DNA from: Candidatus Kapaibacterium sp.
Lineage (GTDB): Bacteria; Bacteroidota; Ignavibacteria; Kapaibacteriales; UBA2268
Reading direction: 5' to 3'
Assembly (NCBI GenBank): GCA_963665665.1
Contig: OY762428.1
Span: 3,144,323 to 3,208,322, forward strand
Length of the DNA: 64,000 nucleotides
Position 1 is the stretch's first letter; each line of letters starts with the position of its first letter. A program made the position numbers and the translations under genes. The notes under the pieces are model-generated. The model was not told the DNA's origin and did not search any database. It saw nothing but the letters and a program-made list of their open reading frames with translations. Positions 9,890 through 53,041 of the stretch are shown here, one piece after another.

Positions 9890-10522
9890 TTATCGGAAAT
9901 CGATAATTTCAACTCCTTCGGGCGGAGTGAATTTAAAACTGTTGCTACTGATATTACTGTTTACATTTAAATTTTCAATTATCCATTTCAGAAAATCATT
10001 ATCTGATTCGATACCTACCGCGATTATCGAGAGGTCTTTCTTCGAAAGCCATATTTTAACCCTGCGAATATCATTTATTGCTTCATCTTCATTATCAGGT
10101 TCCAGTTCCAGGAAATAGACGCTTCCCCTGCCGGATTCAGTCATCGAGGTAAGGCCAACGGGGTAATACTTTTCAAGAAAAATAAAAAAGAACTGCTCCA
10201 GGCCGGCATCAGCACTTTCTGCATCATAATCGCTGATAACTACATTTTTATCTGTTTTTGAATAGTTCCATATTGTTTCACCGTCGCATACTATCCGGCG
10301 TGTTCCAAGAAGCAGGTTGTATTTATTCCCACGTACCGCCTTCAGCTTTCCTTTCAGCCCGGGTTCACTTTCCAGCGAGAAATCAACAGAAACAGATTCA
10401 ATTTCACCGTATTTGGCAATCAGGTTGTTGTAAACATCGTCTTTGTCCGGTTCAAGGGCAAAAACCGGTAAAATACTATTCAGCAGCAGAAGCAATCCCG
10501 TAATAATTGTTTTTTTTATCAT
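9890..10522 (-). CDS. LolA-like outer-membrane lipoprotein carrier/sorting family protein. The ORF track extends to 10597; the likely start is the internal MIKKTII.
   Basis: Signal peptide MIKKTIITGLLLLLNSILPVFA. Length, secreted context and hydrophobic C-terminal segments are consistent with a LolA-like fold. Confidence 0.45.
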   Translation of the reverse strand: MIKKTIITGLLLLLNSILPVFALEPDKDDVYNNLIAKYGEIESVSVDFSLESEPGLKGKLKAVRGNKYNLLLGTRRIVCDGETIWNYSKTDKNVVISDYDAESADAGLEQFFFIFLEKYYPVGLTSMTESGRGSVYFLELEPDNEDEAINDIRRVKIWLSKKDLSIIAVGIESDNDFLKWIIENLNVNSNISSNSFKFTPPEGVEIIDFR

Positions 10523-10526
10523 AATA

Positions 10527-11357
10527 TTAATTATCCCTGATCTTTGCATCGACTTTACCCCGAACACCTGAATATTTTGTAAGCTCGGCCCCGACATATC
10601 CTATCAGTATTTTTGTGGCTACCTTCACCGGAATTTTCCTGTCATCATCAGTAAGCCACACAAGAATTTTACCTTCGCTTTTAAACAGCCCGCCTTTAAC
10701 AACCATTGGCTCGACAACTACGCATTTAAACTCTCCGGCTTTTACTTCAATTGTCTGCCTGCCCCGAATTTTCACTCCGAGCTGGTAAGTAGAATCCTTG
10801 TAGAAATTCTTCAGCATAATAGTGCTGTCCTTTGGAATATTTTTCAGGTCCATAGTCCGCACGTAAAACAAAGCAGAAACAATATCATGAACATAGGGCG
10901 GGATATCAAAAGTATCGGTTTTCTTTTTATTGCGGGTATATGCCTTATGATTTTGCTGGTCGAAATCGGCATACATATCTCTTTTATATTTTCCTTCGCG
11001 AATATGCTGTTCGAAAAGATAGGGGAATATCCCGCCAATATCAATTACAGTCCTGTAGGCGTCTTTCACCCGGTATAGCATATCAAGAGCTGGAAGAGAC
11101 CTTACCTCGAAGCGGATATCATAGCATTTTCTGCCGTCGATAACCACAGGTTCCGGCAGAATATGGAAATATCCCGTTCCGGCAGTAATAAATTTGTAAC
11201 CAACATCGTATTCAAGTTTCTCTCCAAGTCCGAATGCTTCGTTCGGAACGTAGCGGTACGAAGGAGTTTCAAAGTCGGATTTTTCCTGTGCAGTAGAAAG
11301 GGAATGAATTCCGGCCACAGAAAATATTATCAGTATTATTTTAAAAATTTTATGCAT
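10527..11357 (-). CDS. Secreted DUF3108-like protein
   Basis: Signal peptide; architecture and conserved patches resemble the Bacteroidota DUF3108 family; co-oriented with the LolA-like gene with a 4-nt gap. Confidence 0.4.
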   Translation of the reverse strand: MHKIFKIILIIFSVAGIHSLSTAQEKSDFETPSYRYVPNEAFGLGEKLEYDVGYKFITAGTGYFHILPEPVVIDGRKCYDIRFEVRSLPALDMLYRVKDAYRTVIDIGGIFPYLFEQHIREGKYKRDMYADFDQQNHKAYTRNKKKTDTFDIPPYVHDIVSALFYVRTMDLKNIPKDSTIMLKNFYKDSTYQLGVKIRGRQTIEVKAGEFKCVVVEPMVVKGGLFKSEGKILVWLTDDDRKIPVKVATKILIGYVGAELTKYSGVRGKVDAKIRDN

Positions 11358-11874
11358 GATAATTATCTTTATTAAAAAAATTAATTTACATTATTCTTTG
11401 CAAACCGGCAAGATTAATTTTGAAGTATAGATTTTGACGGTTATCAATTATATTTTCACATTTTTCTTTTTTGCCAGGGTATGCAGTGCTTGTTTTAAAT
11501 TCCTGATGATATATTAATCCTGTTTCAACATTCAGCCTGCTCCCTTTTTTACCTGACGGCTGAAGAAAAAGAAATTGTCGATCCTTATATTATAAACGGT
11601 TGAAATTTCCAAAGGTTCATAATTTTCAAGTGAAATTATGTAATCGGCTCTTTTAATTGAGGCCCTTAATATTATTCTTTTGCCATTAGGAACGAAATTC
11701 CGAGAGTTTTTTTATGCCGGCATCCAAAGCTTCAAAATAAATTATTGAAGGCATATTTTAACACGCGTACATATATATCCGGCGCATCCCGGGTAAATAT
11801 TCTTCCGGTAAATTTGAACACGGGAGTCAAATAATTTTATAATTTCCGGGCTTCTGAAAAGAAAGATTTCAACT

Positions 11875-12174
11875 TCACGAAATATTGATTCCTTTCATTA
11901 TAAGCTGTTCCTGCAGGTGGTTCTTAAGCACCCTGCCCCGATAGGTTAAGCGTGAGAAGCTGCATTCCCGACCGTTCAGAATAGTGCCGCGCAAAAAGCC
12001 CTGCTCAATAAGCCGGCGGGCGCCTCGGTATATATCCTGATCGCTGTATTTATTCAGTAATTTATTTGTTTCCGATACAGATTCGAGAATAAGATAAAGT
12101 AACTCATCGGAAAATTTTGGTTCCGGTTCCATGTCGTCGAAAAATGGCTGTTCAAATTCAATACTTCCTATCAT
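11875..12174 (-). CDS. Small hypothetical protein (99 aa), translationally coupled to the upstream S24 peptidase gene
   Basis: ATGA start/stop overlap with 12171..12782. Confidence 0.35.
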   Translation of the reverse strand: MIGSIEFEQPFFDDMEPEPKFSDELLYLILESVSETNKLLNKYSDQDIYRGARRLIEQGFLRGTILNGRECSFSRLTYRGRVLKNHLQEQLIMKGINIS

Positions 12175-12782
12175 TGATTTCCTCCCGGTTCAATTCCAAT
12201 AACTTTAGCAAAAATTCTGAAATTCCTGCATTTTTCAATCGGGACGGGCGGGTATTTGCGGTTTTCGGATACAAGATACTTTCCGTTTCGTTCCACGATA
12301 TATTTTTTAATAAACAGCCTGCCGTCCACTTCTGCAATTATTATATCTCCGCTTTTGCACTTCTTTCCCGGTGCTATAATTGCCTTCATGCCTTCGAAAA
12401 TTCCTGCTCCCTGCATTGAATCCCCGTATATCATGCATTCCTTCAGCTCTGAAATATTGATATTTTCAGGTATGCCGGGCATTTCAGTTTCTGAATAAGA
12501 CAGGCGAAAGGGACGCAGCGGGGCATTGAGCCCGAGTATCGTGCCTGTCAGTATGTATTCCGCGTCTTCTTTGGCGTTTTCAAATGCATCCGACCCGCGT
12601 TGCAGGCATTCCCTGCTTAGTATTTCAAGCCTTTCAATATCAGGCCTGCCCGATTCGGCACCGCCGAGCAGGTATTTCCTGCTTAAGCGGTATATATCGG
12701 CATCCGGGGCCATTGCTGCCCAATCCCTGAATTCAGCCTTAGTCATCATTTTTCTTTCTCTGGTTAAGAATGTCGCCTGCAA
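12171..12782 (-). CDS. S24 (LexA/CI-like) serine peptidase domain protein with a ~110-aa unknown N-terminal extension and no HTH
   Basis: C-terminal ECMIYGDSMQGAGI...GDIIIAEVDGRLFIKKY supplies a Ser/Lys dyad in S24 spacing. Confidence 0.6.
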   Translation of the reverse strand: MQATFLTRERKMMTKAEFRDWAAMAPDADIYRLSRKYLLGGAESGRPDIERLEILSRECLQRGSDAFENAKEDAEYILTGTILGLNAPLRPFRLSYSETEMPGIPENINISELKECMIYGDSMQGAGIFEGMKAIIAPGKKCKSGDIIIAEVDGRLFIKKYIVERNGKYLVSENRKYPPVPIEKCRNFRIFAKVIGIEPGGNQ

Positions 12783-13161
12783 CGGCGCTTATCAGTTCCA
12801 GCTTTTCGTCCATACTCATTTTTTTTGTATCCAGGCTGGCACTGCCAATCGGGATAACCTTATCGTTATGAAATACTTCACTTTCTTCAAGGCGTTCTTT
12901 CAGTATTTTGCCGGCACGGTTGGCAGCAAAAATACTTTCCTCGCCCGTAAGTATAAAAACCGGGTTTATACCTTTGCGGTAGAGCTTAACAAGAAGTTCC
13001 GGGGGAACTCCGGAACGCCCGTTTTCGTAATTGCGGATCTTGTCCTGGCTGACATTAAGCAATTGGGCAAACTGCGAAGCCGACAGCTTCACGCCCTCGT
13101 TGAATATGTTTACCCTGATTTCCCGCAGCCTTCTGCCAATTTCTATTCCTATCTTATCCAT
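12739..13161 (-). CDS. XRE-family helix-turn-helix transcriptional regulator (Cro/CI-like)
   Basis: N-terminal LSASQFAQLLNVSQDKIRNYENGRS HTH; immediately upstream of, and overlapping, the S24 peptidase gene. Confidence 0.65.
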   Translation of the reverse strand: MDKIGIEIGRRLREIRVNIFNEGVKLSASQFAQLLNVSQDKIRNYENGRSGVPPELLVKLYRKGINPVFILTGEESIFAANRAGKILKERLEESEVFHNDKVIPIGSASLDTKKMSMDEKLELISAVAGDILNQRKKNDD

Positions 13162-13294
13162 ATTTTATAAACTATTTTTAAAATAAACAAAAATAATTTA
13201 CTTGGAATATAAGCAATATATACATATATTACAAGTAAAAATTACCAAAAATAATTGTATATATTACATTTGTAATAAAATAAGGTAAAAAATC

Positions 13295-13534
13295 ATGCAA
13301 CAATCAAAGCAAAATGCAAGTGCTGCCGACAGGCTGGAGAAGGCCGGGGAAATTCTCGGGAGTGCCCTGAAGGAAGCCGAGAGCAAAAAGCTGATAAGCC
13401 CCACTTTAAGGTCGGACCTTGAGTTTATAATTGGCGATTTTCTGTTTTCATCAAGCGGGAACGATGCTGAAATCAACTTTCTTATGTTAAACAATAATGG
13501 CTGGGAGCCTGACGGTTATGAACAGTGTTTTTGA
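13295..13534 (+). CDS. Small hypothetical protein (79 aa)
   Basis: ORF with a plausible RBS (aaggtaaaaaatcATG); overlaps an antisense 76-aa ORF, so coding status is uncertain. Confidence 0.3.
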   Translation: MQQSKQNASAADRLEKAGEILGSALKEAESKKLISPTLRSDLEFIIGDFLFSSSGNDAEINFLMLNNNGWEPDGYEQCF

Positions 13535-13784
13535 TCAGATACGCGAAGATGAGCTGACTGACGATTTGAAGCTGGTATCAAAAGTTGTAGGAATTGATGC
13601 TGTAAGAAAAATATTGAAAGATTTTGGCGGCCTGAGTTTTTACATCCCAAAGCTAACACGGCTGGATGGTTTCGTGGACAGGTACATGAAGCAAAACAGG
13701 AATAAAACAGCCAAGCAGATAGCTTTGGACCTTGGCGTGTCCGAGCATTACCTGCGCAGTGTCAGGAAAAGGTTTGGTAATTGA
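13497..13784 (+). CDS. Mor-family (phage Mu middle operon regulator-like) transcriptional activator
   Basis: FGGLSFYIPK followed by the C-terminal HTH AKQIALDLGVSEHYLRSVRKR matches the Mor/C family pattern (FGGxxxYIPK...ELAxxYGxSxxxIxRI). Confidence 0.55.
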   Translation: MAGSLTVMNSVFDQIREDELTDDLKLVSKVVGIDAVRKILKDFGGLSFYIPKLTRLDGFVDRYMKQNRNKTAKQIALDLGVSEHYLRSVRKRFGN

Positions 13785-13806
13785 CAATAGAATACAGGAT
13801 AGAAAA

Positions 13807-14133
13807 TTATCTCATTGATATTCCGAGGTAAGCATGAACCATGCATGCCCAGTCGCCAATGATTTTTCTGTCATCAGTCAGTTCTTTTCGCCAGTCGGTA
13901 TTTTGCCCGGCCTGGCTCATGTTTCTTGCAAGGGCATCAATATTTGAAATAAGGGCGTTATGTGCAGCCGTTCTGTAACTGTCTTTTTCTTTTTTATCAT
14001 CAACAGAAAGAAAGGCCCAGTCAGTCCTTATTCTGGCATATTTAACTACAGAATCGAGCAGTTCAGTTTTCAGGTAATCATTATCAGATTTCATAAGGGA
14101 ATTGTAAATATCAACAACTGAATCCAAAAGCAT
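13807..14133 (-). CDS. Hypothetical protein (108 aa)
   Basis: ORF downstream of the UmuD-like genes on the same strand. Confidence 0.4.
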   Translation of the reverse strand: MLLDSVVDIYNSLMKSDNDYLKTELLDSVVKYARIRTDWAFLSVDDKKEKDSYRTAAHNALISNIDALARNMSQAGQNTDWRKELTDDRKIIGDWACMVHAYLGISMR

Positions 14134-14368
14134 GTATTTCTCCTTGACATAAATTGTACATCAGGAAAAAGATAATAATTAACCATTACCATGCAAGTTC
14201 TTTTTAGTTAATAATTTATATTTTTAAATACTGTAATTTTAGTGTTGATATACTTATTGTTCCGGCAAATTGATTTTTAATTGCTGAAAATGGATTAGTA
14301 CTGACGAATTACCTGATAGCCCGGATAGATAAAATAATCGAGCCTGCCCGGGGGAAAACCATAATCAG

Positions 14369-14821
14369 CTAAATGAGTGAATGTACCACGTGGCGTACTT
14401 TGCCCTGTATGGTGAAAGACATTTCCGGGCTTATCTCAATTGGCAGGAAACGGCTGTTTTCCGATTGCAGATAATAAACACCTTTTTTTTCAATCAGCCT
14501 TTTTACTGTCAGCTCACCGTTCAGAGACGATATAACGATATCGCCGGGGCTGGCAGTATTACATTCCTCAACGATGAGTATATCCCCGTCGAATATATTT
14601 ATATCTATCATACTTTCGCCGTTAACCCTTACAAGATAGAAATTATCCTGGTTTCCTGGCAGAAGGTATTTATAAAGGTCGAGGTCGCCGACATTATTTA
14701 CCCCGGGAATTTTTCCGGCGGGGAATGCTGCATCGAGCAGGGGAGCTTCGAAGCGAAACCTCCTTCCTATCGAACCAAATTTATCAGCCGATAATTTTTT
14801 GCTTTTATAAGAAACTTTCAT
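14369..14821 (-). CDS. UmuD-like S24 peptidase (predicted active; Ser in GESM, Lys in TVKRL)
   Basis: LVRVNGESMIDINIFDGDILIVEE...NGELTVKRL is closely similar to UmuD/LexA catalytic-domain motifs. Confidence 0.7.
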   Translation of the reverse strand: MKVSYKSKKLSADKFGSIGRRFRFEAPLLDAAFPAGKIPGVNNVGDLDLYKYLLPGNQDNFYLVRVNGESMIDINIFDGDILIVEECNTASPGDIVISSLNGELTVKRLIEKKGVYYLQSENSRFLPIEISPEMSFTIQGKVRHVVHSLI

Positions 14822-14846
14822 TTGAAAATATGTGTATTCTTGTTCT

Positions 14847-15275
14847 CTAAATGCTGTGAATTACTTTAGTTACAACACCAACCGGTTTCAGGCCGATATT
14901 TTCTTCATTGATTTCCAAAGGCATAACACTGCTGTCCGGAGCTTCCAGGTATGGCCAGTGCCTTCCTTCCCTGTATATTTTGATAGTGAACGATCCATTG
15001 ACAGATACAACCACAATTCTTCCGTCGGCTGCTTCTATTGCTGTATCAACAACAAGTATATCTCCGTCGGATATATCTAAGTTATAACCGTCAATACCAC
15101 TTATCCTTGCAAAAAAAGTAGCCTTCGGATGTTCTATCAGAAGGTCGTTCAAATCAATTTCCTTGTCGATTTTATCATCAACAGGTACAGGTATTCCTGC
15201 TGAAACAGACATGTTAAAGAATGGCATTTTAGCGCCGGAATAAGGCTTGAAGCCAAATACCTCAACGATTTCCAT
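14847..15275 (-). CDS. UmuD-like S24-fold protein with the nucleophilic Ser replaced by Asp (predicted pseudo-peptidase)
   Basis: SVSAGIPVPV (A-G cleavage-site-like), IDLNDLLIEHPKATFF (very UmuD-like), then ARISGIDGYNLDISDGDILVVD. Aligned against GESM of its neighbour the Ser position is Asp; the Lys in FTIKIY is retained. Confidence 0.6.
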   Translation of the reverse strand: MEIVEVFGFKPYSGAKMPFFNMSVSAGIPVPVDDKIDKEIDLNDLLIEHPKATFFARISGIDGYNLDISDGDILVVDTAIEAADGRIVVVSVNGSFTIKIYREGRHWPYLEAPDSSVMPLEINEENIGLKPVGVVTKVIHSI

Positions 15276-15426
15276 TTTATTGTCCCCTTTTGCTGCTAAT
15301 AATACATGCCGCTAATGCGACACATTAAGTATTATAATATAATGGAAAAGGCAGCACTTATGCAAATTTTTTTTTCGGGTAGTAATTTTTTTTTAATAAT
15401 TGTTTCAATTTTTTAGAAATAGAATG

Positions 15427-16926
15427 TTAGTGTGCCCAAATCGGCTGCACGGCAGGATCAATTCCCAGAACGGCCGAACCTATGAAATAGAAAAATGTTG
15501 AAATAATTAATGCACCGGCAAGGTTTAATATCAGCCCTGCGCGTGTCATATCGTGAATTTCCAAATATCCCGAACCGAATACGATAGCATTGGGCGGAGT
15601 AGCTATTGGAAGCATGAAAGCACATGAAGCGGATATTGTGGCAGGTATCATCAATAGCAGAGGGTTAATGCCCATACCTATGCCAACAGATGCAAGTATC
15701 GGCAGCAGAGTCTGGGTTGTTGCCGTATTTGAAGTAAGCTCGGTCAGGAATGTCAGTATCAGGCATGTCAGTATTATTATCAGGAAAACCGGAGCATCAC
15801 TTAGGGCACTGAATTGATTTCCGATAATTCCCGAAAGCCCTGAATGCTGAAATCCTTCAGCAAGGGCAAAGCCGCCCCCGAAAAGCAGGATGATTTCCCA
15901 GGGAACTGAGCGAATCTGTTCCACACCTACGATACCGCTACCTTTATTTGTGCTGTCCGGAAGAATAAATAGCAAAACAGACATAGCAACAGCTATAGTT
16001 CCGTCGTCCACAAGGCCGTTTAACCCGATCAGGTTAGTCCATCCGTAAATGGTAATAGCGCCAATATTAATATTTGTCCGGAAAGTCCAAAGCAAAGCAG
16101 ATAGTACAAAAACAAACATTACTTTTTTCTCATTAACGCTCATAGCCGGAAGAGAAGTAAACGATCTGTCGTTGTTTAAATTAATATCACACAGTTCTTT
16201 CCGATGTAAAAACTTTGTAAGTATAAGCCATATCAGCCCCAGCATAGTAAGGCTTAAGGGCAGCGCAAAAATCAGCCAATGGCCAAAACTGATTTCGGGG
16301 GCTTCCGGAAAAGTGGAATGATATATCTGGTTGAATGCAAGATTGGGAGGCGTTCCGATAAGTGTGGCTATACCTCCGGCAGAAGCGGAATAGGCTATGG
16401 CAAGCATTAGCGGCGTACCAAAGGAACGGGCTTTGGAAGCATTCCCCGCTGCATGTGTTACTGCTATGGCTACCGGAAACATCATAACCGCCGTGGCAGT
16501 GTTTGAAATAAACATCGAAAGAAAAGCTGTTGCGATCATGAATCCGAGAATTACAACTGCCGGACTCTTTCCGGTACGGTTCAATATGAAAAAAGCAATA
16601 CGTTTGTGAAGGCCGGTTTTCTGCATGGCCGAGGCAATTATAAAACCACCGAGGAAAAGTAAAATCACAGAATTGAAGTATTCTGCGGCAGTTTCTTTGC
16701 CCTTCATAATTCCAAGCAATGGGAAAAGAACAGCCGGCATCAGAGATGTTGCACTGAGCGGAAGGGCGTTTGTCATCCACCATGTGGCCATTAATACTCC
16801 AACAGCTGTCATATCAGAAGCTGGCTTGCTATCAGAAACAGGAAATATTATCAAAAGAATGAACAATATTATACCGAGGAAGAACCCTGATCGTGAAATT
16901 TTTCTTGCTTTATTTTTGTTTTCCAT
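15427..16926 (-). CDS. Anion permease of the DASS/SLC13 (ArsB/NhaD superfamily) type
   Basis: ~14 TM; repeated SNTATA..M.PI motifs (FISNTATAVMMFPVA; LTSNTATTQTLLPIL) typical of Na+/dicarboxylate-sulfate symporters. Confidence 0.65.
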   Translation of the reverse strand: MENKNKARKISRSGFFLGIILFILLIIFPVSDSKPASDMTAVGVLMATWWMTNALPLSATSLMPAVLFPLLGIMKGKETAAEYFNSVILLFLGGFIIASAMQKTGLHKRIAFFILNRTGKSPAVVILGFMIATAFLSMFISNTATAVMMFPVAIAVTHAAGNASKARSFGTPLMLAIAYSASAGGIATLIGTPPNLAFNQIYHSTFPEAPEISFGHWLIFALPLSLTMLGLIWLILTKFLHRKELCDINLNNDRSFTSLPAMSVNEKKVMFVFVLSALLWTFRTNINIGAITIYGWTNLIGLNGLVDDGTIAVAMSVLLFILPDSTNKGSGIVGVEQIRSVPWEIILLFGGGFALAEGFQHSGLSGIIGNQFSALSDAPVFLIIILTCLILTFLTELTSNTATTQTLLPILASVGIGMGINPLLLMIPATISASCAFMLPIATPPNAIVFGSGYLEIHDMTRAGLILNLAGALIISTFFYFIGSAVLGIDPAVQPIWAH

Positions 16927-23179: not shown

Positions 23180-23806
23180 TCAGTTAGTAAAATTCTTATC
23201 CACAATAGTAAGCCTTCCGGGGTATGAAATCATTCCCAGGCTGGTTTTTACAGTTGGTTTGGCATCAAGTTTCAGCCTGGCAGCACTGCCGTCAATACCG
23301 CCCAGGGCAAGTGCCAGATTAACAATACCATCGTAACCTTTGTTGCCAAAAAACTGAAACAGGTCCAGCCCGACGCTTAGCGGGATAATCTCTTTCTGGC
23401 CCGTCCCGGGAATTACGAATTCACGTCCGATATCACCATGAACTGTTTCAACTTCGTCAATATATAATTTCCAGTCGAAACCTGTAACGGTGGCAGGGGT
23501 TGATTTTGTGTTTTTCCCGCCGGTGTTCGGATTTTTGGCAGCAACATTAAGCATGAAGTCAGCCGGTAATTTTTTGCTTGTAAAAGATTTTGTCAGGCCA
23601 AGTCCGTCTGTTATCGAAAAGTCTGAAATATTTTTCTTTTTGTCTAAATTAATTCCTGCCAGCCTAAAATCCGAGACTCCGTCGAGCTTAAATTCAAGCC
23701 TTTGCAGGTTAGTTACGGCGTCGGCAATTTGTTTTAAGGTTTTGCAGCCGAAAAATACGGCAAAGGAAAGAAAGCTGATGATAACGATTAAACTGATTTT
23801 CTTCAT
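23180..23806 (-). CDS. Hypothetical lipoprotein (208 aa)
   Basis: Signal peptide plus lipobox (FFGCKT); 4 nt from the downstream gene. Confidence 0.4.
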   Translation of the reverse strand: MKKISLIVIISFLSFAVFFGCKTLKQIADAVTNLQRLEFKLDGVSDFRLAGINLDKKKNISDFSITDGLGLTKSFTSKKLPADFMLNVAAKNPNTGGKNTKSTPATVTGFDWKLYIDEVETVHGDIGREFVIPGTGQKEIIPLSVGLDLFQFFGNKGYDGIVNLALALGGIDGSAARLKLDAKPTVKTSLGMISYPGRLTIVDKNFTN

Positions 23807-23941
23807 GATAATAACCGGTAATGTTAAAAAACGAATTAGATTTAAAGAAGAATATCCTAAAAAAATATTATAAACCTTCTAAATACAAAAAAATACAAGA
23901 ACCCGTCTCGGGGTTCTTGTATTAACATTTTTAGTCATTGA

Positions 23942-24424
23942 TTATTCCAGGCCGGCTTCGCTTACCACCTCATCAACTGATTTACCGGCATATTCGCCAT
24001 TAAGAGCCTTTTCGAGTATTTCTCTCAGGGCTTTTGCTTTTTGGTTGCCAATATTTAATGTAGAAAGAAGTTTAACTTTTGCAATCAATAATTTTTCCTC
24101 AATAGGTTTGCTCAGAAAATCATCAGCACCTGCTTCGATCGATTTTAATTGATTGGCCACATCATTAAGAGCTGTAACAATCACAACTGGTATATGCTGA
24201 GTTTCTTCATTACTTTTCAACCTTTTTACCGTTTCATAACCATCCAGACGCGGCATCATAACATCAAGCACAATGGCATCGGGATGCTTTTCGTCAACTT
24301 TTTCCAGGCATTCGATGCCGTCATAGGCTTCAACAGCATCATACCCGTTTGCTTCAAGGTATCTCCTGAGAAGCTTTGTTGTTATCCTGTTGTCATCAAC
24401 TACCAGTATATAGGGCTTTTTCAT
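23942..24424 (-). CDS. Stand-alone response regulator receiver (CheY-like) protein
   Basis: ILVVDDN...LDVMMP.LDGYE...VVIVTA...GADDFLSKP gives the receiver-domain Asp pocket, phospho-acceptor Asp and Lys. Confidence 0.75.
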   Translation of the reverse strand: MKKPYILVVDDNRITTKLLRRYLEANGYDAVEAYDGIECLEKVDEKHPDAIVLDVMMPRLDGYETVKRLKSNEETQHIPVVIVTALNDVANQLKSIEAGADDFLSKPIEEKLLIAKVKLLSTLNIGNQKAKALREILEKALNGEYAGKSVDEVVSEAGLE

Positions 24425-25278
24425 AAAAAAATTCCTTTTGACATATTTTATTTATTTTTCAATTAATAGTTCTTCATTATGTTGAAATCGTAATATTTTC
24501 CAAAAAGAAGATAATAATAAATCACATTATTCACAAATTTATTATCAGAGTAACGGTTAAATAACAGAAATATTCTTGTATTTACAAATTCATTTTAAAT
24601 ATATCGCCTTCAGATTAATGATTTTCTTAAAAAGAATCCAACATCCTGACGGAAGCAACCAGACAGCAAACGAATAAAAAAATTTTCTGCTAATTCCTGT
24701 GAATCCAATTTTCAATTGTCCAATAAATATATTACAATTTTCTGAACAAATAAAAAAACACTTTTTAAAAACTAAATATTTTTATTTAATGGACAAATTC
24801 AGAGGGATGAAATAATAATTAATATTACCTGATCTAAATATTTTGTTTTTGAATATTTGTTTTTAGAAAAGCATAGCAAAATTGCTTTAAATTAAGGCTT
24901 TTGCTTAAAGCTGCTTTACCGGGCGGGGCCGTGATAAAGTTTACACGATTATTATTCTATTGATATAAAAAATTGCTGAAATATTATTTATGCCGGAAGT
25001 TATTTAATTTGGCTTTAAAAAACTCTTCGATAAAGAAATATAAAAACGAACACACTAAATATATGATATAATATGTGATTACAAAATATTTGGTTTTGTG
25101 CGATATTTGACTTATTTTGAAACAATAAGCTGATTATTGACTTTTTGGGGGCTTATCCTATAAATCAAAAACAATTAAATTGAAAATATTCAGATAACAC
25201 GATCACATAACTTTCTCTGTTTAAGTTATTTAACAATAAACTATAACTATAGTTCCACAATTTTTTCAGGTAATCCAT

Positions 25279-29067: not shown

Positions 29068-30141
29068 ATGTCTCAGTTTAAAATAACAAAAGCGACCGAT
29101 ACGCGGATAAATGATATTGATTACAATAATCTCGGCTTTGGAAAATATTTTTCCGATCACATGTTCGTTACAAAATTCTCGGATGGTAAATGGGATGAAG
29201 GTGAAATAAAGCCCTACGGTAAGATTGAAATAGAACCGGCAATGTGCACTTTGCATTATGGCCAGGCTTTGTTCGAAGGGCTTAAAGCATTCAGATCTGC
29301 AAAAGGAGGGGTTAATCTTTTCCGGCCCGAGAAAAATGGCGAAAGAATGAACAATTCCGCTGAAAGGATTTGCATTCCAACCTATGATATTGATACAATG
29401 ATCGATGCAATATCCGAACTCGTAAAAATCGATATCAATTTCATCCCAAAGGAACGGGGCCATTCACTGTACATACGTCCTGTTATGTTTGGTGACGGCA
29501 ATTTTCTTGGTGTTCATGCCAGTGACACTTACCAATTGATAATTATGACCGGCCCGGTATCTTCCTATTATCCGGAAGGTATTAAGCCGGTGAAAATCAT
29601 GGTTTGCGATGAATATGTACGCGCAGCAAAAGGCGGAACCGGGTATGCAAAAGTTGCCGGAAATTATGCAGCTTCTCTGCTTGCCGGCAAAAAAGCCCAG
29701 GCTGCGGGATTTTCTCAGGTACTTTGGCTTGATGCTATTCACAGGGAGTATGTGGATGAAGTCGGCGCCATGAACATAATGTTCGTTATTGGAGATGAAC
29801 TTATTACTCCGACACTTGAAAACGGAACAATACTTCCCGGCGTTACAAGGAATTCGGTGCTTACACTTGCAAAAGAGTGGGGTATGAAGGTAAGCGAAAG
29901 GCCTTTGAGCATTAACGAAATTACCTCAGCTTCTTCTGACGGCACTCTGAAGGAATGCTTCGGAACAGGAACTGCTGCCGTGATTTCTCCTGTTGGGCTG
30001 CTGAATTACAAAGGCGAAGAGATAATTGTTAATAATCAGGAAATTGGCCCGGTAGCACAAAAACTTTACGATACGCTTACCGGCGTTCAGTATGGCGAAA
30101 TTGAAGATACCCGAGGCTGGATAACTCATATTGACGTATAA
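29068..30141 (+). CDS. ilvE: Branched-chain amino acid aminotransferase (fold type IV)
   Basis: FSDHMF...EGLKAFR...GGTGYAKVAGNYAASL...PGVTR are BCAT-family motifs; 357 aa. Confidence 0.85.
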   Translation: MSQFKITKATDTRINDIDYNNLGFGKYFSDHMFVTKFSDGKWDEGEIKPYGKIEIEPAMCTLHYGQALFEGLKAFRSAKGGVNLFRPEKNGERMNNSAERICIPTYDIDTMIDAISELVKIDINFIPKERGHSLYIRPVMFGDGNFLGVHASDTYQLIIMTGPVSSYYPEGIKPVKIMVCDEYVRAAKGGTGYAKVAGNYAASLLAGKKAQAAGFSQVLWLDAIHREYVDEVGAMNIMFVIGDELITPTLENGTILPGVTRNSVLTLAKEWGMKVSERPLSINEITSASSDGTLKECFGTGTAAVISPVGLLNYKGEEIIVNNQEIGPVAQKLYDTLTGVQYGEIEDTRGWITHIDV

Positions 30142-30258
30142 TTCCAGTTTATTTTTTATTTTTAATAAGCCGGGTTTTAAAATCCGGCTTTTTTTTATTT
30201 TTTTTAAATATTTTTTTTTATATTCTTTAAAAGTAACCATCAACCTCACGGGTTAATT

Positions 30259-33186
30259 ATGACTCCTGAAGAGAATAAAATAAAAAAATTGGAAACCGAA
30301 ATAGAACAATTGAAACAGGAAATAGAAAGCCTGAGAACTACACGATTTCCGGATAAGATTAATTCCGTTTCCGAATTATTGAAATTTATATATGATTCAG
30401 CTCAGTTTGGTATCGGTATTGCTGATCCTGATATGAACATAATCTATTTGAACAACTACTTTCTTGATTTGCTTGGCTATAAGATGGATGAGCTTATAGG
30501 AAAGAATGTATCAACATTTCACGATTCTGAAACACTTGCCTTTATGAATAAGTCCAGGGAGGAAATGGCCGATTCCGGCAAGAGTTTTGCCCGGCAGGTT
30601 CCACATTTGAAAAAGAATGGTGAAATAGTTCAGATGCTTTTAAAACCGGTTATTTTTAAAAATAACGAGGGAGAAATAATTTATTATGCTACAACTGCTC
30701 TGGACCTGACAGAATTACTGGAACTAAATAACCAGCTTGAGGAAAGAGAAATTCATTTCAGGTCTATTTTTGAGAATTCAAATTTTGCCATTGCTTTTAC
30801 TGATAATAATTTGAAAATCCAATTTGTAAATGATGCATTTATCAGCTTGTTTGGCTATACTATCGAAGAAATGAAAAAAATCGGTATTAAAGGAATTTCT
30901 CACCCGGATGACTTTGAAGAAGACATTAAATTTTTGCGAAAGATCCGAAGTGAGGAATCCAGTAAATATTCTTTGGAAAAAAGGTATATAAGGAAAAACG
31001 GAGAAGTGTTCTGGGGGAAAATTACCGTTTCGTTAGTAAGGGACAAAGAAGGCAGAATGAGTAATATCCTTGGAATTATTGAAGATATCGGGGAAAGGAA
31101 GAGAAAAGAAAAATATATTCATAGCCTTAACGACCGCCTGCTAATGGCTTTGAGCCTTAGTAATATGATTATTTGGGAGATTGATTTGATACGTGGAAAG
31201 GTATCGCAATATCTTTCATCAAATAATCAGATAAATGATAATTTTCATCTTAATTCCAGTGTTAAATCTTTGCTGCGCGGTATCCACGAGGAAGATAAAA
31301 ATAAAGTTTACGACAGTATAAGACTAATAATTGATAAACATCAAATATTAAACGAAGAATACAGGTTTACATTTCCAACCGGCGAAACGCACTGGCTGCA
31401 ATCTTTTGCACGGCCTGTTGAAATACAGGAGGGTGTTGTTTCAAGAATTCTCGGGGCATCCTGGATTATTACCGACAGGAAGGAAACGGAGCTTTTCCTG
31501 CAAATGAGCCAGGAAAAATATAGTAGTATTGTTGAAAATTCAAGGGATTGTATAGTCAGGTTCGATCGGGATAGGAGACATATTTTTGCGAACCATTCAG
31601 CACTTGAAAATCTGGATCTGAAATTAGAAAATATTTTGGGGCAGAGAATTGATTCAGCAGGATTTTCTGAAAAAACAGTTGATCTGATGAATAACAAAAT
31701 TGATGAGTTATTTACAACGAGAGAATCCCAGCAACTTATTTTTGAATGTGACCTGAATGACTGCCGAAAAGTATTCGACTGGAGGATACATCCTGAATAT
31801 GATGAAAACAAGGAAATAAAATCTATTCTTGCTGTTTCAAGAGACATTACAAAGCAAAAGGAATATGAAAATAACCTAAAGGAATCCAGAGAAAACGAAG
31901 CTTTGATGCATTCTATTGTTTCAGAATTTTTGATGCATTCCGACGAAAAGGTTTATGATGCTGTACAAGATATCCTGTTGGAAAAATTTGATTGTAAATA
32001 CGGGTTGTTCGGATTTATTGATGATGACGGGAACCTTGTTCTACCAACACTGTCTACTGAAATATGGGATGTTTGCCGGGTAGAGGATAAAAAGATAACT
32101 TTTGAACCCAAACAGTGGGGAGGGCTTTGGGGCAGATCGCTGAATGAAAAAAAAGTGCTGGTTCAAAATTCCGGCTTGAAAGTACCAATAGGCCATATCA
32201 GGCTTAAAAATGCAATTTCAGTACCGATTATATTCAAAGACGATGTTATTGGTTTGTTGCTATTAGCAGATAAATATTGTGATTTTGATGATACTGATGT
32301 TCTTAGAATGAAAGAAATTGCTGAATATATTGCTCCTGTGCTGTCGGCCAGGCTGGATACTGAAACTCTTAGCCGGCAGCGGGATCTGGCTGAACAGGAA
32401 ATTCAGAAAATGAATGTGGAGCTGGAACAGAAGGTCATTAACCGGACTATCGAGCTTAAAGAAACTAACCAGAGGCTTGAATTTGCCCTGGAAAAAGAGA
32501 AAAACCTGAATTCTATGAAAAGCCAGTTTATAAATATGGTATCGCACGAATACAGAACCCCGCTAACAGTTATCATGTCGTCTGCTCATCTTATTGACAA
32601 ATTTATAGAGAATGATAAAATTGATAAGATTGGCAATCATACATTAAAAATAAAAAGATCTGTTGATAATATGATAAGCCTGATTGAAGATGTGGTTAAC
32701 GTTGGCAAATCCACAGACAAGAAATTAAAAACAAATTTAATCGATATCAATATACTTGCAGAGTTAGAAGATTTAATTAATGAGTTAAAAAGTGCAAATC
32801 ATAAGAATCATAACTTTATCATTGATGCTGAAGATATCAAATTCAGAACCGATCGCAAACTTTTTAAATTAATTTGTTATAATATTATTTCAAATTCAAT
32901 AAAGTATTCTCCTGAAAAAACTACTATAGAATTGAAAGCTATATGCGATTCAGAAGGCCTGGTAATTACTTTTATTGATCAGGGTATTGGATTTACGGAC
33001 GAGGATATGAAAAATCTTTATGAACCTTTTTACAGAAATAAAAACCACATCGGCACAATACCCGGAACCGGGCTTGGTATGACTATCATCCAGCAATCTG
33101 TAGAAGCCCTGAACGGTAATTTTGCCATCAACAGTGCTCCCGGGCAGGGTACTAAAATTTTGCTTATGCTTCCGGCTGTGAAGTAG
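30259..33186 (+). CDS. Multi-PAS/GAF sensor histidine kinase
   Basis: N-terminal coiled coil, several PAS/PAC-like blocks, HisKA (MVSHEYRTPLTVI) and HATPase_c (GTGLGMTII...G.GT). Confidence 0.8.
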   Translation: MTPEENKIKKLETEIEQLKQEIESLRTTRFPDKINSVSELLKFIYDSAQFGIGIADPDMNIIYLNNYFLDLLGYKMDELIGKNVSTFHDSETLAFMNKSREEMADSGKSFARQVPHLKKNGEIVQMLLKPVIFKNNEGEIIYYATTALDLTELLELNNQLEEREIHFRSIFENSNFAIAFTDNNLKIQFVNDAFISLFGYTIEEMKKIGIKGISHPDDFEEDIKFLRKIRSEESSKYSLEKRYIRKNGEVFWGKITVSLVRDKEGRMSNILGIIEDIGERKRKEKYIHSLNDRLLMALSLSNMIIWEIDLIRGKVSQYLSSNNQINDNFHLNSSVKSLLRGIHEEDKNKVYDSIRLIIDKHQILNEEYRFTFPTGETHWLQSFARPVEIQEGVVSRILGASWIITDRKETELFLQMSQEKYSSIVENSRDCIVRFDRDRRHIFANHSALENLDLKLENILGQRIDSAGFSEKTVDLMNNKIDELFTTRESQQLIFECDLNDCRKVFDWRIHPEYDENKEIKSILAVSRDITKQKEYENNLKESRENEALMHSIVSEFLMHSDEKVYDAVQDILLEKFDCKYGLFGFIDDDGNLVLPTLSTEIWDVCRVEDKKITFEPKQWGGLWGRSLNEKKVLVQNSGLKVPIGHIRLKNAISVPIIFKDDVIGLLLLADKYCDFDDTDVLRMKEIAEYIAPVLSARLDTETLSRQRDLAEQEIQKMNVELEQKVINRTIELKETNQRLEFALEKEKNLNSMKSQFINMVSHEYRTPLTVIMSSAHLIDKFIENDKIDKIGNHTLKIKRSVDNMISLIEDVVNVGKSTDKKLKTNLIDINILAELEDLINELKSANHKNHNFIIDAEDIKFRTDRKLFKLICYNIISNSIKYSPEKTTIELKAICDSEGLVITFIDQGIGFTDEDMKNLYEPFYRNKNHIGTIPGTGLGMTIIQQSVEALNGNFAINSAPGQGTKILLMLPAVK

Positions 33187-38346: not shown

Positions 38347-38566
38347 ATTTATAAATATTGATTGTATGGTTAAAGCTATTATAGCCAATTATTTGCATCT
38401 ATAATCATAGTTATAGTAATAATACGTTAAACTTGAACAACTAAAATCATATCTAAAAGTATATATATAGGGTTAACTATCGGGCAACTATTTCGTTATA
38501 TTAATTAAGAGAGTAATTCGTTCTTTGAAAAGCAGCAAAAAAAAAACCGTGAAAAATCACGGTTTG

Positions 38567-47402: not shown

Positions 47403-49721
47403 CTATTGGATAACTAATTTGAAATCAAAAATTTTATCAGAGGAAGTTACCTTAATAAAATATGCTCCATTTAATAAATCACCCGGTAATTTGTACTGAA
47501 TATCCTGGCGTATGGCTCCGAAAAGAGATAGTTTTTCTTTCTTTATCGTTCTTCCGCTAAGGTCAATCAATTCAATTATTGTCTCACCGGCAAATTCATC
47601 ATTCAAAGTCAAAGTAATCAAAGAGCCGGGATGAGCGGGATTAGGAAAAATATTTGCCTTAATGCCCTGGGTTTCTTCAACTGATGTGATCGGATTATAT
47701 TCTATAGCGCATAAAAAGCCTGCATCATGTTGATATGGAAAATGAGGATCAAAGGCATTGTATATCGGAAAATCATAGCTTTCTGTCATTCCTGATAGAT
47801 ATATTCTTCCTGTACTGTCAATTGCCGATCCTCTCAATTCATTGAACCACCCTCTTCCTGCAAGATATGAACAATATAAAACACTATCCAACTTACTACT
47901 TATTACCATAACAAAGCCTCTGTTTTCACCCAGAAATTGACTATCCGTCGTTGTTAATGCATCATTTGTAACATCTAATTCTCCCCCTTGTCCTGTTCCT
48001 GATACAATATAACAATTATCAGGAGTCCGGTCAAACTGAATCATATCATAAGGGTAGGTTTGTCCGTATGTTGAAATTATCTCATTTCCGCTCAAAATGT
48101 TCTTTTTAATTAAGAACAATACCATACCAGATTCTGTATCCGTAGTTTTATGTGCTCCTGGAGTAGTGGTAATATCTTCTTCCTCTGTCAAGCCAAATAT
48201 TTGAAAATTGTTGTTACCAGAATATAATACATATTGGATTCTAAGTAACTCCTCATATGTTTGGTATAATGTAGTTTTATAGTCTGATAAATCTAAAAGA
48301 CTATAATATGCAGAATCGATTTCTGTTGAATAAACATCAACACCTGATAAACAAAGCGTATCTTCAAAAAGAGTACAAAACATTAACTCGGTTTGTTTTC
48401 CTCTTCCGTAATACGAAGAGAATTTAATTTCAGAACCATTAGCGCCTAAAATTGTTATAAATCCGTCAAATTTCTGTTTCTTTTCTTTTCGTATAGCATT
48501 TTCGGTTGTAAATATATTTGTATTTTCATTAATCGATCCAACATGATAACAATTACCTTTGTCGTCTATTTCAATAAAATCATGGGAAAAATAACCATCT
48601 GCTATTTCCCAAAAAGAACCATTATATAAAGAATCACCTGTATTCGATAGATTTACTGAATAATACATATCATTTCTAATAGAAAAATCAGGATTTCCCA
48701 AATATGCATGATCACAAACAGGCATAGTATCTCTTGAAAAACCATATAACTTATAGGAACCATCATTAAGAAAGGCTATTTTATGTATCATGAATTCCGG
48801 AAAATGACTTAACCACAAAGGATATTTCCCGTCCCTGTCAAAACAGCATACGACTCCTTCGACTTCTCCCCGTGCAATATTATATCTTTTCAATGAATCA
48901 GGGAAATACATTTTATCAAAAATGTACATTCCGAAAACCGGATTATTATCCTGATTAACACAAATTGACAATCCTGATGCATCGGCCCCCCCAAGAAAAG
49001 TTGAAAAAACTGTCGGATCGATTATCAATTCCTCTGTTTCGTCATATTTACCGAGTTTAAATGTCAGGTGCTTGCCGTCGTAAATAACAGGTGAACAATC
49101 TATTGGCTGCAATTGATATTCAGATTTTTGAAAAGCTTTCAGCGCCCCGTGCGTATATTCTACATTACCTGAAACAACTTTGAAGTTGCCATTATCAGAA
49201 TAATCAAGATGCCCCTCGCCTTGGAATTCAATTTTCAAATTACCTGGATTAGCACCGGGAGGAAGGATAATATCATATCTCGGTTTGTGACTATCAATTG
49301 TCAGTTTCAGGCTAAAATCCTGGTAATCAACCGTTATTTCACGATAAGATTTAACCGAAACGGCTTTATTGCTTTTATGATCATAAAAGTAATTATGAAC
49401 AGTCGGTTTCTCACCATTGGTATTCAAATTAATAACTTTATTGCGTTGATTGTCTGATGAAAATAACAACATATAGGCGCAACCGATTATGGTATCATGA
49501 GCATTTGATTCATATTTACCGGGGCTTTTCAGCCCCGGTTTAATATTATAATGATCAAATACAAGCCCGTCCCCGGTTATCCATACATTGATACCATCAG
49601 CAGAAGCTTTGGCCAATATGTTTTCCGGCCACTGCCCGGCGTTCGGAATAATGGATTCTTCGGAATAAACAAATCCGGCGGAAAGGAATAAAATACAAAA
49701 TAAAACTACTGCATTTCTCAT
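47403..49721 (-). CDS. Hypothetical secreted protein with a type-A T9SS C-terminal domain
   Basis: Signal peptide; C-terminal IKANIFPNPAHPGSLITLTLN...GRTIKKE...LLNGAYFIKVTSSDKIFDFKLVIQ. Confidence 0.55.
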   Translation of the reverse strand: MRNAVVLFCILFLSAGFVYSEESIIPNAGQWPENILAKASADGINVWITGDGLVFDHYNIKPGLKSPGKYESNAHDTIIGCAYMLLFSSDNQRNKVINLNTNGEKPTVHNYFYDHKSNKAVSVKSYREITVDYQDFSLKLTIDSHKPRYDIILPPGANPGNLKIEFQGEGHLDYSDNGNFKVVSGNVEYTHGALKAFQKSEYQLQPIDCSPVIYDGKHLTFKLGKYDETEELIIDPTVFSTFLGGADASGLSICVNQDNNPVFGMYIFDKMYFPDSLKRYNIARGEVEGVVCCFDRDGKYPLWLSHFPEFMIHKIAFLNDGSYKLYGFSRDTMPVCDHAYLGNPDFSIRNDMYYSVNLSNTGDSLYNGSFWEIADGYFSHDFIEIDDKGNCYHVGSINENTNIFTTENAIRKEKKQKFDGFITILGANGSEIKFSSYYGRGKQTELMFCTLFEDTLCLSGVDVYSTEIDSAYYSLLDLSDYKTTLYQTYEELLRIQYVLYSGNNNFQIFGLTEEEDITTTPGAHKTTDTESGMVLFLIKKNILSGNEIISTYGQTYPYDMIQFDRTPDNCYIVSGTGQGGELDVTNDALTTTDSQFLGENRGFVMVISSKLDSVLYCSYLAGRGWFNELRGSAIDSTGRIYLSGMTESYDFPIYNAFDPHFPYQHDAGFLCAIEYNPITSVEETQGIKANIFPNPAHPGSLITLTLNDEFAGETIIELIDLSGRTIKKEKLSLFGAIRQDIQYKLPGDLLNGAYFIKVTSSDKIFDFKLVIQ

Positions 49722-49725
49722 TATA

Positions 49726-52149: not shown

Positions 52150-52598
52150 AAGAAAACCTCAATGAAAAATTAAACATTATGAATTGTGCCCGAAGGCTTT
52201 TTGCAAATGTTACAAATGGCAGTTCTAACTTGGTATTTTTTTTAGCTCAATCTTTTTAATATTTGGTTCAATAATATTTCCCTAACCCTTTATTTTAATA
52301 GTAATATTGATTTCTTTTCACAAGGTAAAGTGAAAAAATGTAGAAAACAATCCTTAATGTATATTTGTATCTATAGTGTTGTTAATGTTATTAATTCTAT
52401 TTTTTTTCAAACAATTAAATATCAGTGAACAACGAACAACCAGGATTCAAATATTATTATTTGATAATAAATGTACCAGAAATGTTTATAATTTTCATTT
52501 GGATGGATCGGATACTGTATCAGAATAATCAAAGCGAATACATCAAAATTTAGAAATTTACTCAGTAAAAAAAAAGAGAGCTACTAAAAATATAGTTG

Positions 52599-52620
52599 TA
52601 CTACTAAAAAATTAGTAGTA
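52599..52620. promoter_or_regulatory. Perfect 9-4-9 palindrome upstream of the BlaI-family repressor gene; candidate autoregulatory operator
   Basis: TACTACTAA-AAAA-TTAGTAGTA, ~45 bp upstream of the likely start (52665). A related half-site tactaaaaa lies at 52582-52590. Confidence 0.5.
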
Positions 52621-52664
52621 TATTGCATTCAGGATCAACTAAGAATTTAGTAGAAGAGAATATA

Positions 52665-53039
52665 ATGAAAGAATTGACAAAAGCGGAAGAACAGGTAATG
52701 CTTATACTCTGGAAAAAAGAGAAAGCATTTGTAAGGGATATAATAAACGAGTTGCCGGATCCGAAACCGGCTTATACAACTGTTTCTACAATTGTCCGGA
52801 TACTGGAAAGCAAGGGATTTGTGAAACATGAAGAGCAGGGCAATATCCATAATTACTATCCTGTTGTAAACCAGGAGGAATATGCCGGCAGGTTTATGGA
52901 GGGCTTTGTTAAAAACTATTTTTCCAATTCCTTCAAGAACCTTGTTTCCTTTTTTTCAAAGCAGGATGATATCAGCATCAGCGAGCTTGAAGAGATCAGG
53001 CAGATAGTAAATTCAGAAATAAACAGGAAAAAGGATTAA
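52665..53039 (+). CDS. BlaI/MecI/CopY-family transcriptional repressor. The ORF track starts at 52623; the likely start is MKELTKAEE.
   Basis: LTKAEEQVMLILWKKEKAFVRDIINELPDPKPAYTTVSTIVRILESKGFV is a winged-helix penicillinase-repressor pattern. Confidence 0.75.
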   Translation: MKELTKAEEQVMLILWKKEKAFVRDIINELPDPKPAYTTVSTIVRILESKGFVKHEEQGNIHNYYPVVNQEEYAGRFMEGFVKNYFSNSFKNLVSFFSKQDDISISELEEIRQIVNSEINRKKD

Positions 53040-53041
53040 AA

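Follow-up and report, generated by a model that had tools for sequence, protein, structure and literature searches.

Two candidate chromosomal modules carrying S24 peptidase genes lie side by side in a Candidatus Kapaibacterium genome

Gene content of the islet

The 64,000-nucleotide stretch of Candidatus Kapaibacterium sp. analysed here (assembly GCA_963665665.1, contig OY762428.1, positions 3,144,323 to 3,208,322; hereafter the window) carries a compact islet of small genes at 11358-15400, which a first-pass annotation had read as one phage-derived regulatory region of seven genes. Calling of open reading frames (ORFs) gave eight, each at its previously assigned position, designated here orfA to orfH (Table 1). 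In our reading, for which we see the chances as evenly balanced, the islet is composed of two unrelated, conserved chromosomal modules, namely a cassette with XRE, S24 and Mor-like genes (orfA to orfE) and a UmuD-like gene pair (orfH and orfG), plus the orphan orfF, none of them being a prophage remnant.

The three S24 peptidase genes of the first-pass annotation all score above the Pfam Peptidase_S24 (PF00717) cut-off of 23.3 bits (orfB, 62.5; orfG, 85.9; orfH, 59.7), and its XRE-type helix-turn-helix (HTH) protein was recovered as orfC (HTH_31, 33.1 bits against a cut-off of 27; HTH_3, 23.1 bits against 23). Pfam likewise gave DUF3108 and an Na/sulfate symporter for the flanking genes, in agreement with the DUF3108 and anion permease flanks proposed before. 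No family was found for orfA, orfD or orfF in Pfam, PHROGs, NCBIfam or PADLOC. For orfF there was no phage match either, and among 85 fetched loci its homologues were confined to the same-species contigs L005 and L086; it is an orphan unrelated to either module. Contig L005, from a strain in another metagenome, is 99.66% identical to the window over 20 kb and has the same genes. Given that the substitutions between the two inside islet genes comprise six synonymous and two non-synonymous changes, the islet genes appear to be live coding genes.

Table 1. Features of the islet and its flanks (positions in the window)
Feature	Position	Strand	Description
DUF3108 gene	10527-11357	-	left flank of islet; Pfam
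non-coding gap	11358-11874	.	517 bp between DUF3108 gene and orfA; no assignable feature
orfA, 99 amino acids (aa)	11875-12174	-	third gene of leftward operon; conserved small protein
orfB, 192 aa from ATG (203 aa from upstream TTG)	12171-12749	-	stand-alone S24 protease
orfC, 140 aa	12739-13161	-	XRE-type HTH, predicted repressor
operator-like palindromes, three, 11 bp each	13213-13267	.	GTAA-N3-TTAC form, starts 22 bp apart
orfD, 79 aa	13295-13534	+	first gene of rightward operon; small acidic protein, isoelectric point (pI) 4.4
orfE, 88 aa (95 aa from upstream ATG)	13518-13784	+	basic Mor-like HTH protein, pI 9.7; presumed activator
orfF, 108 aa	13807-14133	-	orphan, outside both conserved modules
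orfG, 150 aa	14369-14821	-	"enzyme" half of UmuD-like pair; Ser70 and Lys107 intact
orfH, 142 aa	14847-15275	-	"substrate" half of UmuD-like pair; Ala26-Gly27 kept, Ser lost
Na/sulfate-symporter-type permease	15427-16926	-	right flank of islet; Pfam

The gap to the left of orfA is indeed non-coding, as had been proposed; each of its six reading frames is broken into short pieces, and its sequence is identical in L005. The accompanying suggestion of decayed genes gained no support, since neither an Rfam search of 10500-16000 nor a blastx search of the gap against all ORFs of the fetched loci returned any match. Scans of the islet for sigma-70 promoters, terminators and repeats gave nothing above chance.

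Two modules that recur separately

The view of the islet as a single unit did not survive comparison with other genomes, as the cassette recurs without the S24 pair or orfF and the pair recurs without the cassette genes. A genome scan with an alignment of the Mor-like protein recovered 19 loci in Ignavibacteria, Kapabacteria and Bacteroidota metagenome-assembled genomes (MAGs). All 19, as well as two further loci (L006 and L008), share a core in which, according to local hidden Markov models, the Mor-like gene is divergent from an XRE gene followed by an S24 gene. Because one scan locus (L012) shares a contig with L008, the number of independent cassette loci besides the window is 20 (L006, L008 and 18 scan loci). 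The full five-gene arrangement of the window is found at L006/L007 and L008/L009, both identified via orfB homologues, where an 88-aa Mor-like gene and a small ORF are divergent from XRE, S24 and a 95-aa gene. The orfB family was detected by exhaustive protein search; word-indexed searches with orfB and orfE returned only the queries.

For the pair, a metagenome scan for orfH-like (H-type) genes yielded 57 loci. Informative loci, namely those where a close H-type gene was followed by sufficient sequence downstream, numbered 36. An orfG-like (G-type) gene lies within about 145 nt of the H-type gene in 33 of these 36, the pair being conserved at 45-60% identity. Since all locus scans rest on degenerate peptide patterns, with 6-10 kb around each locus inspected, the locus counts are lower bounds.

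Neither the pair nor orfF was found within 8 kb of the other cassette loci, and no cassette gene was found in the tandem-pair loci (>30). The surroundings of the cassette include fructose-1,6-bisphosphatase (six loci), a response regulator (four loci), Ndk and type IX secretion system cargo proteins, and those of the pair RNase HI (seven loci), RarA, glycosyltransferase, thiolase and radical-SAM genes. Homologues of orfH elsewhere adjoin an orfG-like gene among housekeeping genes, without other islet genes. Furthermore, a position weight matrix (PWM) built for the cassette operators (see below) identified no site upstream of orfF, orfG or orfH, so that no regulatory link between the modules is seen.

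Some observations concern the surroundings and the provenance of the cassette loci. Directly downstream of the cassette in L006 (3971-5197) are genes for a response regulator and a lipoprotein-like protein of ~210 aa; both have homologues in L010, and in L011 and L018 only the response regulator has one. The window carries homologues of both L006 genes at ~23180-24430, about 10 kb off and on the Mor side, which suggests a local rearrangement, and the gap at 11358-11874 might be its scar. The MAGs of L010 and L012 are labelled "uncultured Hyphomicrobiales", probably in error: the genes next to the cassette and the nearest relatives are of Ignavibacteria/Kapabacteria type.

Operon structure and putative operators of the cassette

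The genes orfC-orfB-orfA form a translationally coupled operon divergent from orfD-orfE. The stop of orfC overlaps the start of orfB by 11 nt, orfB and orfA overlap by 4 nt, and orfD and orfE by 17 nt; the ORF calls confirm both the overlap of the XRE and S24 genes and the divergent orientation of orfD-orfE described before. Homologues of orfA follow the S24 gene in about 9 of 21 cassette loci and share the motif ARKL-x3-GF-x-RGT...C-x-WSR-x-T-x-x-G. Conservation of orfD is weak, with weak homologues at the same position in about 11 loci; most cassette loci have a small, poorly conserved ORF there, which is absent in four. At L028 (5112-6883), a 533-aa ORF on the same strand separates the XRE and S24 genes and may be an insertion into the operon; these two genes are adjacent or overlapping in the other cassette loci.

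Between the divergent operons, cassette loci contain two or three palindromes with a 22-bp phasing, which overlap promoter-like boxes. The form GTAA-N3-TTAC is present in the divergent intergenic region of 21/21 loci analysed (window included), with copies 22 or 44 bp apart in 13 of them. The window has cores at 13213 (GCAATATATAC, two mismatches), 13235 (GTAAAAATTAC) and 13257 (GTATATATTAC); the last core runs into a TAnnTTTG box (13264-13271), which lies 24 nt before the ATG start codon of orfD. In a PWM scan of the window this was the only cluster, the total match count being equal to the shuffle expectation. A perfect match at 57183 was discarded; it lies inside a 370-aa ORF and is within chance expectation.

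Proteins of the cassette

The orfB product consists of an acidic four-helix N-terminal domain (residues 1-67), a disordered linker (70-98) and an S24 core with the catalytic dyad Ser111 and Lys148, which is kept in 21/21 family members. Pfam aligns orfB from model position 39 onwards, orfG from position 20 and orfH from position 2, the last of these matches taking in the Ala-Gly cleavage site. The N-terminal model positions being outside its Pfam match, orfB is devoid of a cleavage-site region of its own, and no Ala-Gly or Cys-Gly is conserved in the linker across the family. In an AlphaFold2 (AF2) model (predicted local distance difference test, pLDDT, 83.6), the core is UmuD'/LexA-CTD-like and superposes on UmuD' and on the C-terminal domain of LexA. 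The N-terminal domain (pI 4.7), modelled alone, reached a pLDDT of 90.8, and fold comparison identified no specific relative and no HTH-like match for it; no Pfam family other than S24 was detected in orfB. A protein of 7220 aa (P0051) matches orfB at E 1e-42 through 13 stretches, the best of which aligns to residues 83-127, that is, the linker and the start of the S24 core, and is apparently a giant protein made up of repeats of that segment.

The XRE family ends in a conserved motif, (A/V)(A/V)A-G(D/N/K)(I/L/M), followed by a short charged tail, found in 19/21 homologues and represented in orfC by Ala128-Gly129 (encoded at 12775-12780). No Ala-Gly other than this C-terminal one is conserved in the cassette proteins; the A-G of the XRE hinge is not.

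The assignment of the proposed activator to the Mor family holds only at the family level, since 20/21 orfE homologues match Mor at E<=0.01 (best 5.6e-7); the window protein alone, at 18.1 bits, is below the Pfam Mor (PF08765) cut-off of 24.9. It matches phrog_836, "late transcriptional activator", at 9.4e-7, and its sole phage match is the BalMu-1 "late transcriptional activator" (23% identity, E 9e-3). Its motif is GG-x2-FYIPK, and the top PDB match of the family profile is Mu Mor (1RR7; E 0.053), over the GG..YIP loop.

A predicted repressor/protease switch

Taken together, these features would fit a self-contained chromosomal switch in which orfB acts on the XRE protein, and for this part of the islet the earlier alternative of an uncharacterised repressor/protease system is apt. 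XRE dimers would bind the phased operators cooperatively and keep the rightward orfD-orfE operon off. Since orfB has an intact Ser-Lys dyad without a cleavage-site region of its own, it could, on some signal, inactivate the repressor in trans, upon which the Mor-like protein would be made and would activate targets elsewhere. The likeliest cut site would be the conserved C-terminal AAA/G of the XRE protein, which orfB possibly cleaves. Such a cut would leave an ssrA-like or LexA-NTD-like C-terminus ending in AAA or VAA, comparable to the end by which ClpX recognises the N-terminal fragment of LexA; alternatively, it would free the repressor from a protease dimer.

Several observations speak against this proposal. 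Pro usually follows the cleavage sites of LexA and UmuD; the XRE C-terminal segment (e.g., EKLELISAVAGDILNQ) is rich in helix-forming residues and has no Pro after the site, and AAAG could thus be a helix-packing or dimerisation motif. Two of the 21 XRE homologues have AAAK, and their proteases nevertheless keep the dyad. Some orfB homologues carry GAAK in their own linker, so they may cleave themselves. Finally, the PWM scan found no operator upstream of any other gene of the window.

The helical XRE tail lacking Pro, the AAAK loci and the GAAK linkers make a self-cleaving co-repressor a serious rival, which we rate as possible, if somewhat doubtful. Here, orfB would behave as LexA does and cut its own linker, its N-terminal domain would bind XRE as a co-repressor or anti-repressor, and the XRE AAAG would be structural. 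Characterised S24 regulators all self-cleave, in cis or within a dimer, and besides GAAK in one subclade the disordered orfB linker has a conserved R-x-D/K-Y/F-L/M-S/T..E. A precedent is UmuDAb-DdrR, a UmuD homologue acting together with a small corepressor (PMC11332147). The linker nevertheless has no family-wide Ala-Gly or Cys-Gly, the Pfam match of orfB leaves out the cleavage-site region, and in the AF2 model the linker is not docked in the active site.

A role of the five-gene cassette in anti-phage defence, or as a module of the toxin-antitoxin kind, is improbable in our judgement; in such a system a phage cue would trigger the protease and the Mor-like protein or orfD and orfA would serve as effectors. 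Compact, patchily distributed XRE regulatory cassettes are common in defence islands, and orfA and orfD are without an assigned function. However, PADLOC (PADLOC-DB 2.0) gave only weak generic HTH matches for orfC, there is no enzyme-like effector domain in the cassette, and its neighbours are housekeeping genes (the FBPase and response-regulator loci mentioned above), partly syntenic within subclades, which suggests vertical inheritance.

Evidence against a prophage origin of the islet

The first-pass annotation had called the islet phage-derived and possibly a domesticated prophage; in this view a single decayed or domesticated immunity and late-activation region was inserted between the DUF3108 and permease genes. 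This reading has its attractions. The XRE, S24 and Mor families are typical of temperate-phage switches, PHROG matches include transcriptional repressor, CI-like repressor and late transcriptional activator, the divergent promoters with phased operators resemble the layout of lambda OR, and a non-coding gap of 517 bp adjoins the islet. Even so, the same compact cassette is present, without phage genes, in 20 other independent loci, whose independent decay to one and the same gene set is improbable, and the tandem S24 pair is conserved separately from it.

Other evidence points in the same direction. In line with the absences already reported by the first-pass annotation, searches of the islet and its flanks found no integrase, att-like repeat, tRNA or structural genes; there is no integrase or structural gene in the called flanks of L005, no repeat flanks the islet, and the sole tRNA of the window is at 38566, 23 kb away. 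The GC content of the islet resembles that of the rest of the window. (Three other segments, 24001-25000, 30001-33000 and 48001-54000, have a GC content of 0.31-0.36, clearly lower than the window average of ~0.40.) No relative turned up when 2.9 million viral contigs were pattern-scanned with the Mor-like, XRE and H-type profiles, whereas the same kind of scan gave the 19 genome and 57 metagenome loci; any phage ancestry is therefore confined to the level of domain families. With both modules amid housekeeping genes and none of the hallmarks of a prophage or integrative element found (integrase, att, tRNA target, structural genes, composition, viral relatives), the prophage reading is largely refuted and we hold it to be highly improbable.

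The UmuD-like pair

The first-pass annotation had described two tandem UmuD-like genes, and this description needs the correction that orfH has no catalytic Ser. Aligned to E. coli UmuD, orfH has Ala-Gly at the scissile position (15195-15200), Asp62 (15090-15092) at the position of UmuD Ser60, and Lys99 kept; orfG retains its dyad and is without a conserved Ala-Gly site. Among the three S24 proteins of the islet, the full dyad is thus present in orfB and orfG and missing in orfH, and an own Ala-Gly or Cys-Gly scissile site is found only in orfH, being absent or unconserved in the other two. This reciprocity is systematic: Ala-Gly is present in 40/40 H-type and 1/34 G-type proteins, the catalytic Ser in 10/40 (elsewhere N, D, E, M, T, A, F, G, K or L) and 34/34, and the catalytic Lys in 35/40 and 34/34, respectively, the other UmuD-like core residues all being kept in H-type proteins. 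Of the two non-synonymous changes that separate the islet genes of the window and L005, one is I61V at orfH codon 61 (window 15095), next to Asp62. Neither orfG nor orfH has a DNA-binding domain. Against NCBIfam UmuD (NF007621), orfH, orfG and orfB score 96.5, 86.6 and 48.8 bits, all below the cut-off of 110, and the LexA model (TIGR00498; cut-off 110.95) gave 72.1, 50.1 and 36.4 bits for the S24 proteins, also below its threshold.

The absence of umuC noted earlier was confirmed with a Y-family polymerase probe, an E. coli DinB sequence, which was negative for the whole 64-kb window and for every pair locus. The positive controls were detected; the probe identified a Y-family polymerase of ~417 aa directly downstream of about 10 distant single umuD-like genes (L064, L066, L069-L077).

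Judging by the residues retained, the simplest reading is that the pair would be an obligate enzyme/substrate heterodimer of subfunctionalised UmuD-like proteins. In this arrangement, orfG would cut orfH in trans, an ability known from UmuD dimers of E. coli, and once processed the pair would act on a partner whose gene lies elsewhere. Cleavage between UmuD molecules is established (PMC9926225; McDonald et al. 1998, cited there). Two points count against the heterodimer: three H-type genes (L002, L050 and L054) have no adjacent G-type gene, and the gene for a polymerase partner may lie outside the 6-10 kb inspected. The simple umuDC remnant that had been considered earlier does not account for the systematic way in which active site and cleavage site are reciprocally lost; a degenerating umuD duplication left without joint function after loss of umuC, to which the missing adjacent polymerase and the lost orfH nucleophile might point, is hardly credible given the conservation of the pair in 33 of 36 informative loci at the identity given above, the strictly reciprocal pattern, the intact H-type core and the mostly synonymous between-strain substitutions within the pair.

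Sequences upstream of the pair were inspected as well. Upstream of H-type genes, a search for enriched dyad motifs gave A/T-rich dyads and nothing resembling an SOS-box palindrome. A run of at least five G within 150 nt upstream of the H-type gene is present in 26/35 loci (L001, L029-L063; background 0.03 per 150 nt). It is at Shine-Dalgarno distance in some loci and elsewhere 30-65 nt upstream, flanked by a short inverted repeat (CATTTC...GGGGGGAAATG), and could serve as a strong Shine-Dalgarno sequence, form a leader hairpin or bind a protein. In the window there are just four G (GGGG), at -12 of orfH (CCCC on the + strand, 15284-15287). Upstream of the pair in L004/L041 (L004:1700-1825) is a near-perfect palindrome with 9-bp arms, TTTCATTTT-GTACA-AAAATGAAA, which was not seen in the other loci.

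Significance of the two modules

Self-cleavage of the S24 proteins LexA, cI and UmuD is a textbook signalling device. From the distribution of dyads and cleavage sites we infer that both modules place S24 enzyme and substrate on separate polypeptides. A broader proposal, which we consider unlikely as a whole, is that S24 autoproteolysis was split twice independently in Ignavibacteria/Kapabacteria, with the cassette as the lineage's master switch for damage or stress, a "split LexA" operating via a Mor-like activator and the pair as a polymerase-independent or DinB-directed checkpoint. If true, the "split LexA" would be a new architecture for SOS-type control, and the XRE-S24-Mor cassette a serine-protease counterpart of the ImmA/IrrE metalloprotease switches. 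Likewise, enzyme-only and substrate-only paralogues would represent a natural dissection of S24 self-cleavage, and UmuD-like proteins would hold a conserved role away from Pol V. The cassette could also point to the wiring of DNA-damage and stress responses in Ignavibacteria and Kapabacteria.

Comparison with known systems

The catalytic fold and Ser-Lys dyad of LexA, lambda cI and UmuD are shared by orfB and orfG, and the N-terminal arm of UmuD with its Ala-Gly recurs in orfH. In those proteins, however, site and active site are in one polypeptide, whereas here they are apparently divided between two genes, orfH having a site without Ser and orfG and orfB a dyad without a site. Where LexA and cI have their HTH, orfB has a non-DNA-binding acidic helical domain instead. 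With E. coli UmuD2 and UmuD-UmuD', the pair has in common the small size, the N-terminal arm and the conserved core; in contrast to Pol V (UmuD'2C), it is heterodimer-like with reciprocal losses and has no umuC within 6-10 kb in >30 loci or anywhere in the 64-kb window. Our literature searches turned up neither a split XRE/S24 pair nor a UmuD pair divided into enzyme and substrate.

The non-canonical LexA proteins of Bacteroidetes have a cI/XRE-type HTH joined to S24, recognise the boxes CTAA-N5-TTAG, GGA-N5-TCC and TTAC-N5-GTAA and, as single polypeptides, regulate recA, umuDC and dinB (PMC8565304). The cassette shares with them a related phylum, the combination of HTH and S24 and short dyad operators, and differs in having HTH and S24 as separate genes, the operator GTAA-N3-TTAC and no linked SOS gene. 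With Mor and C of phage Mu, the orfE family shares the GG-x2-YIP loop followed by a C-terminal HTH; Mu Mor has 129 aa as against 88 in orfE, which belongs to a chromosomal cassette without Mu-like genes. PrtR/PrtN (pyocin) and SetR/SetCD (SXT) are also comparable, as relays in which a cleavable S24-linked repressor controls a small activator switching on distant genes; in the cassette, the repressor is split and the activator is of a different family.

ImmR/ImmA (ICEBs1, phi105) and DdrO/IrrE (Deinococcus) resemble orfC-orfB in that an XRE repressor gene is co-transcribed with a separate protease gene beside it. The repressors of these systems are cut in their C-terminal part (PMC12828697 and PMC6868357). 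The ImmA/IrrE protease is an M78/COG2856 zinc metalloprotease, whereas orfB is an S24 serine protease whose cleavage of the XRE protein is a prediction.

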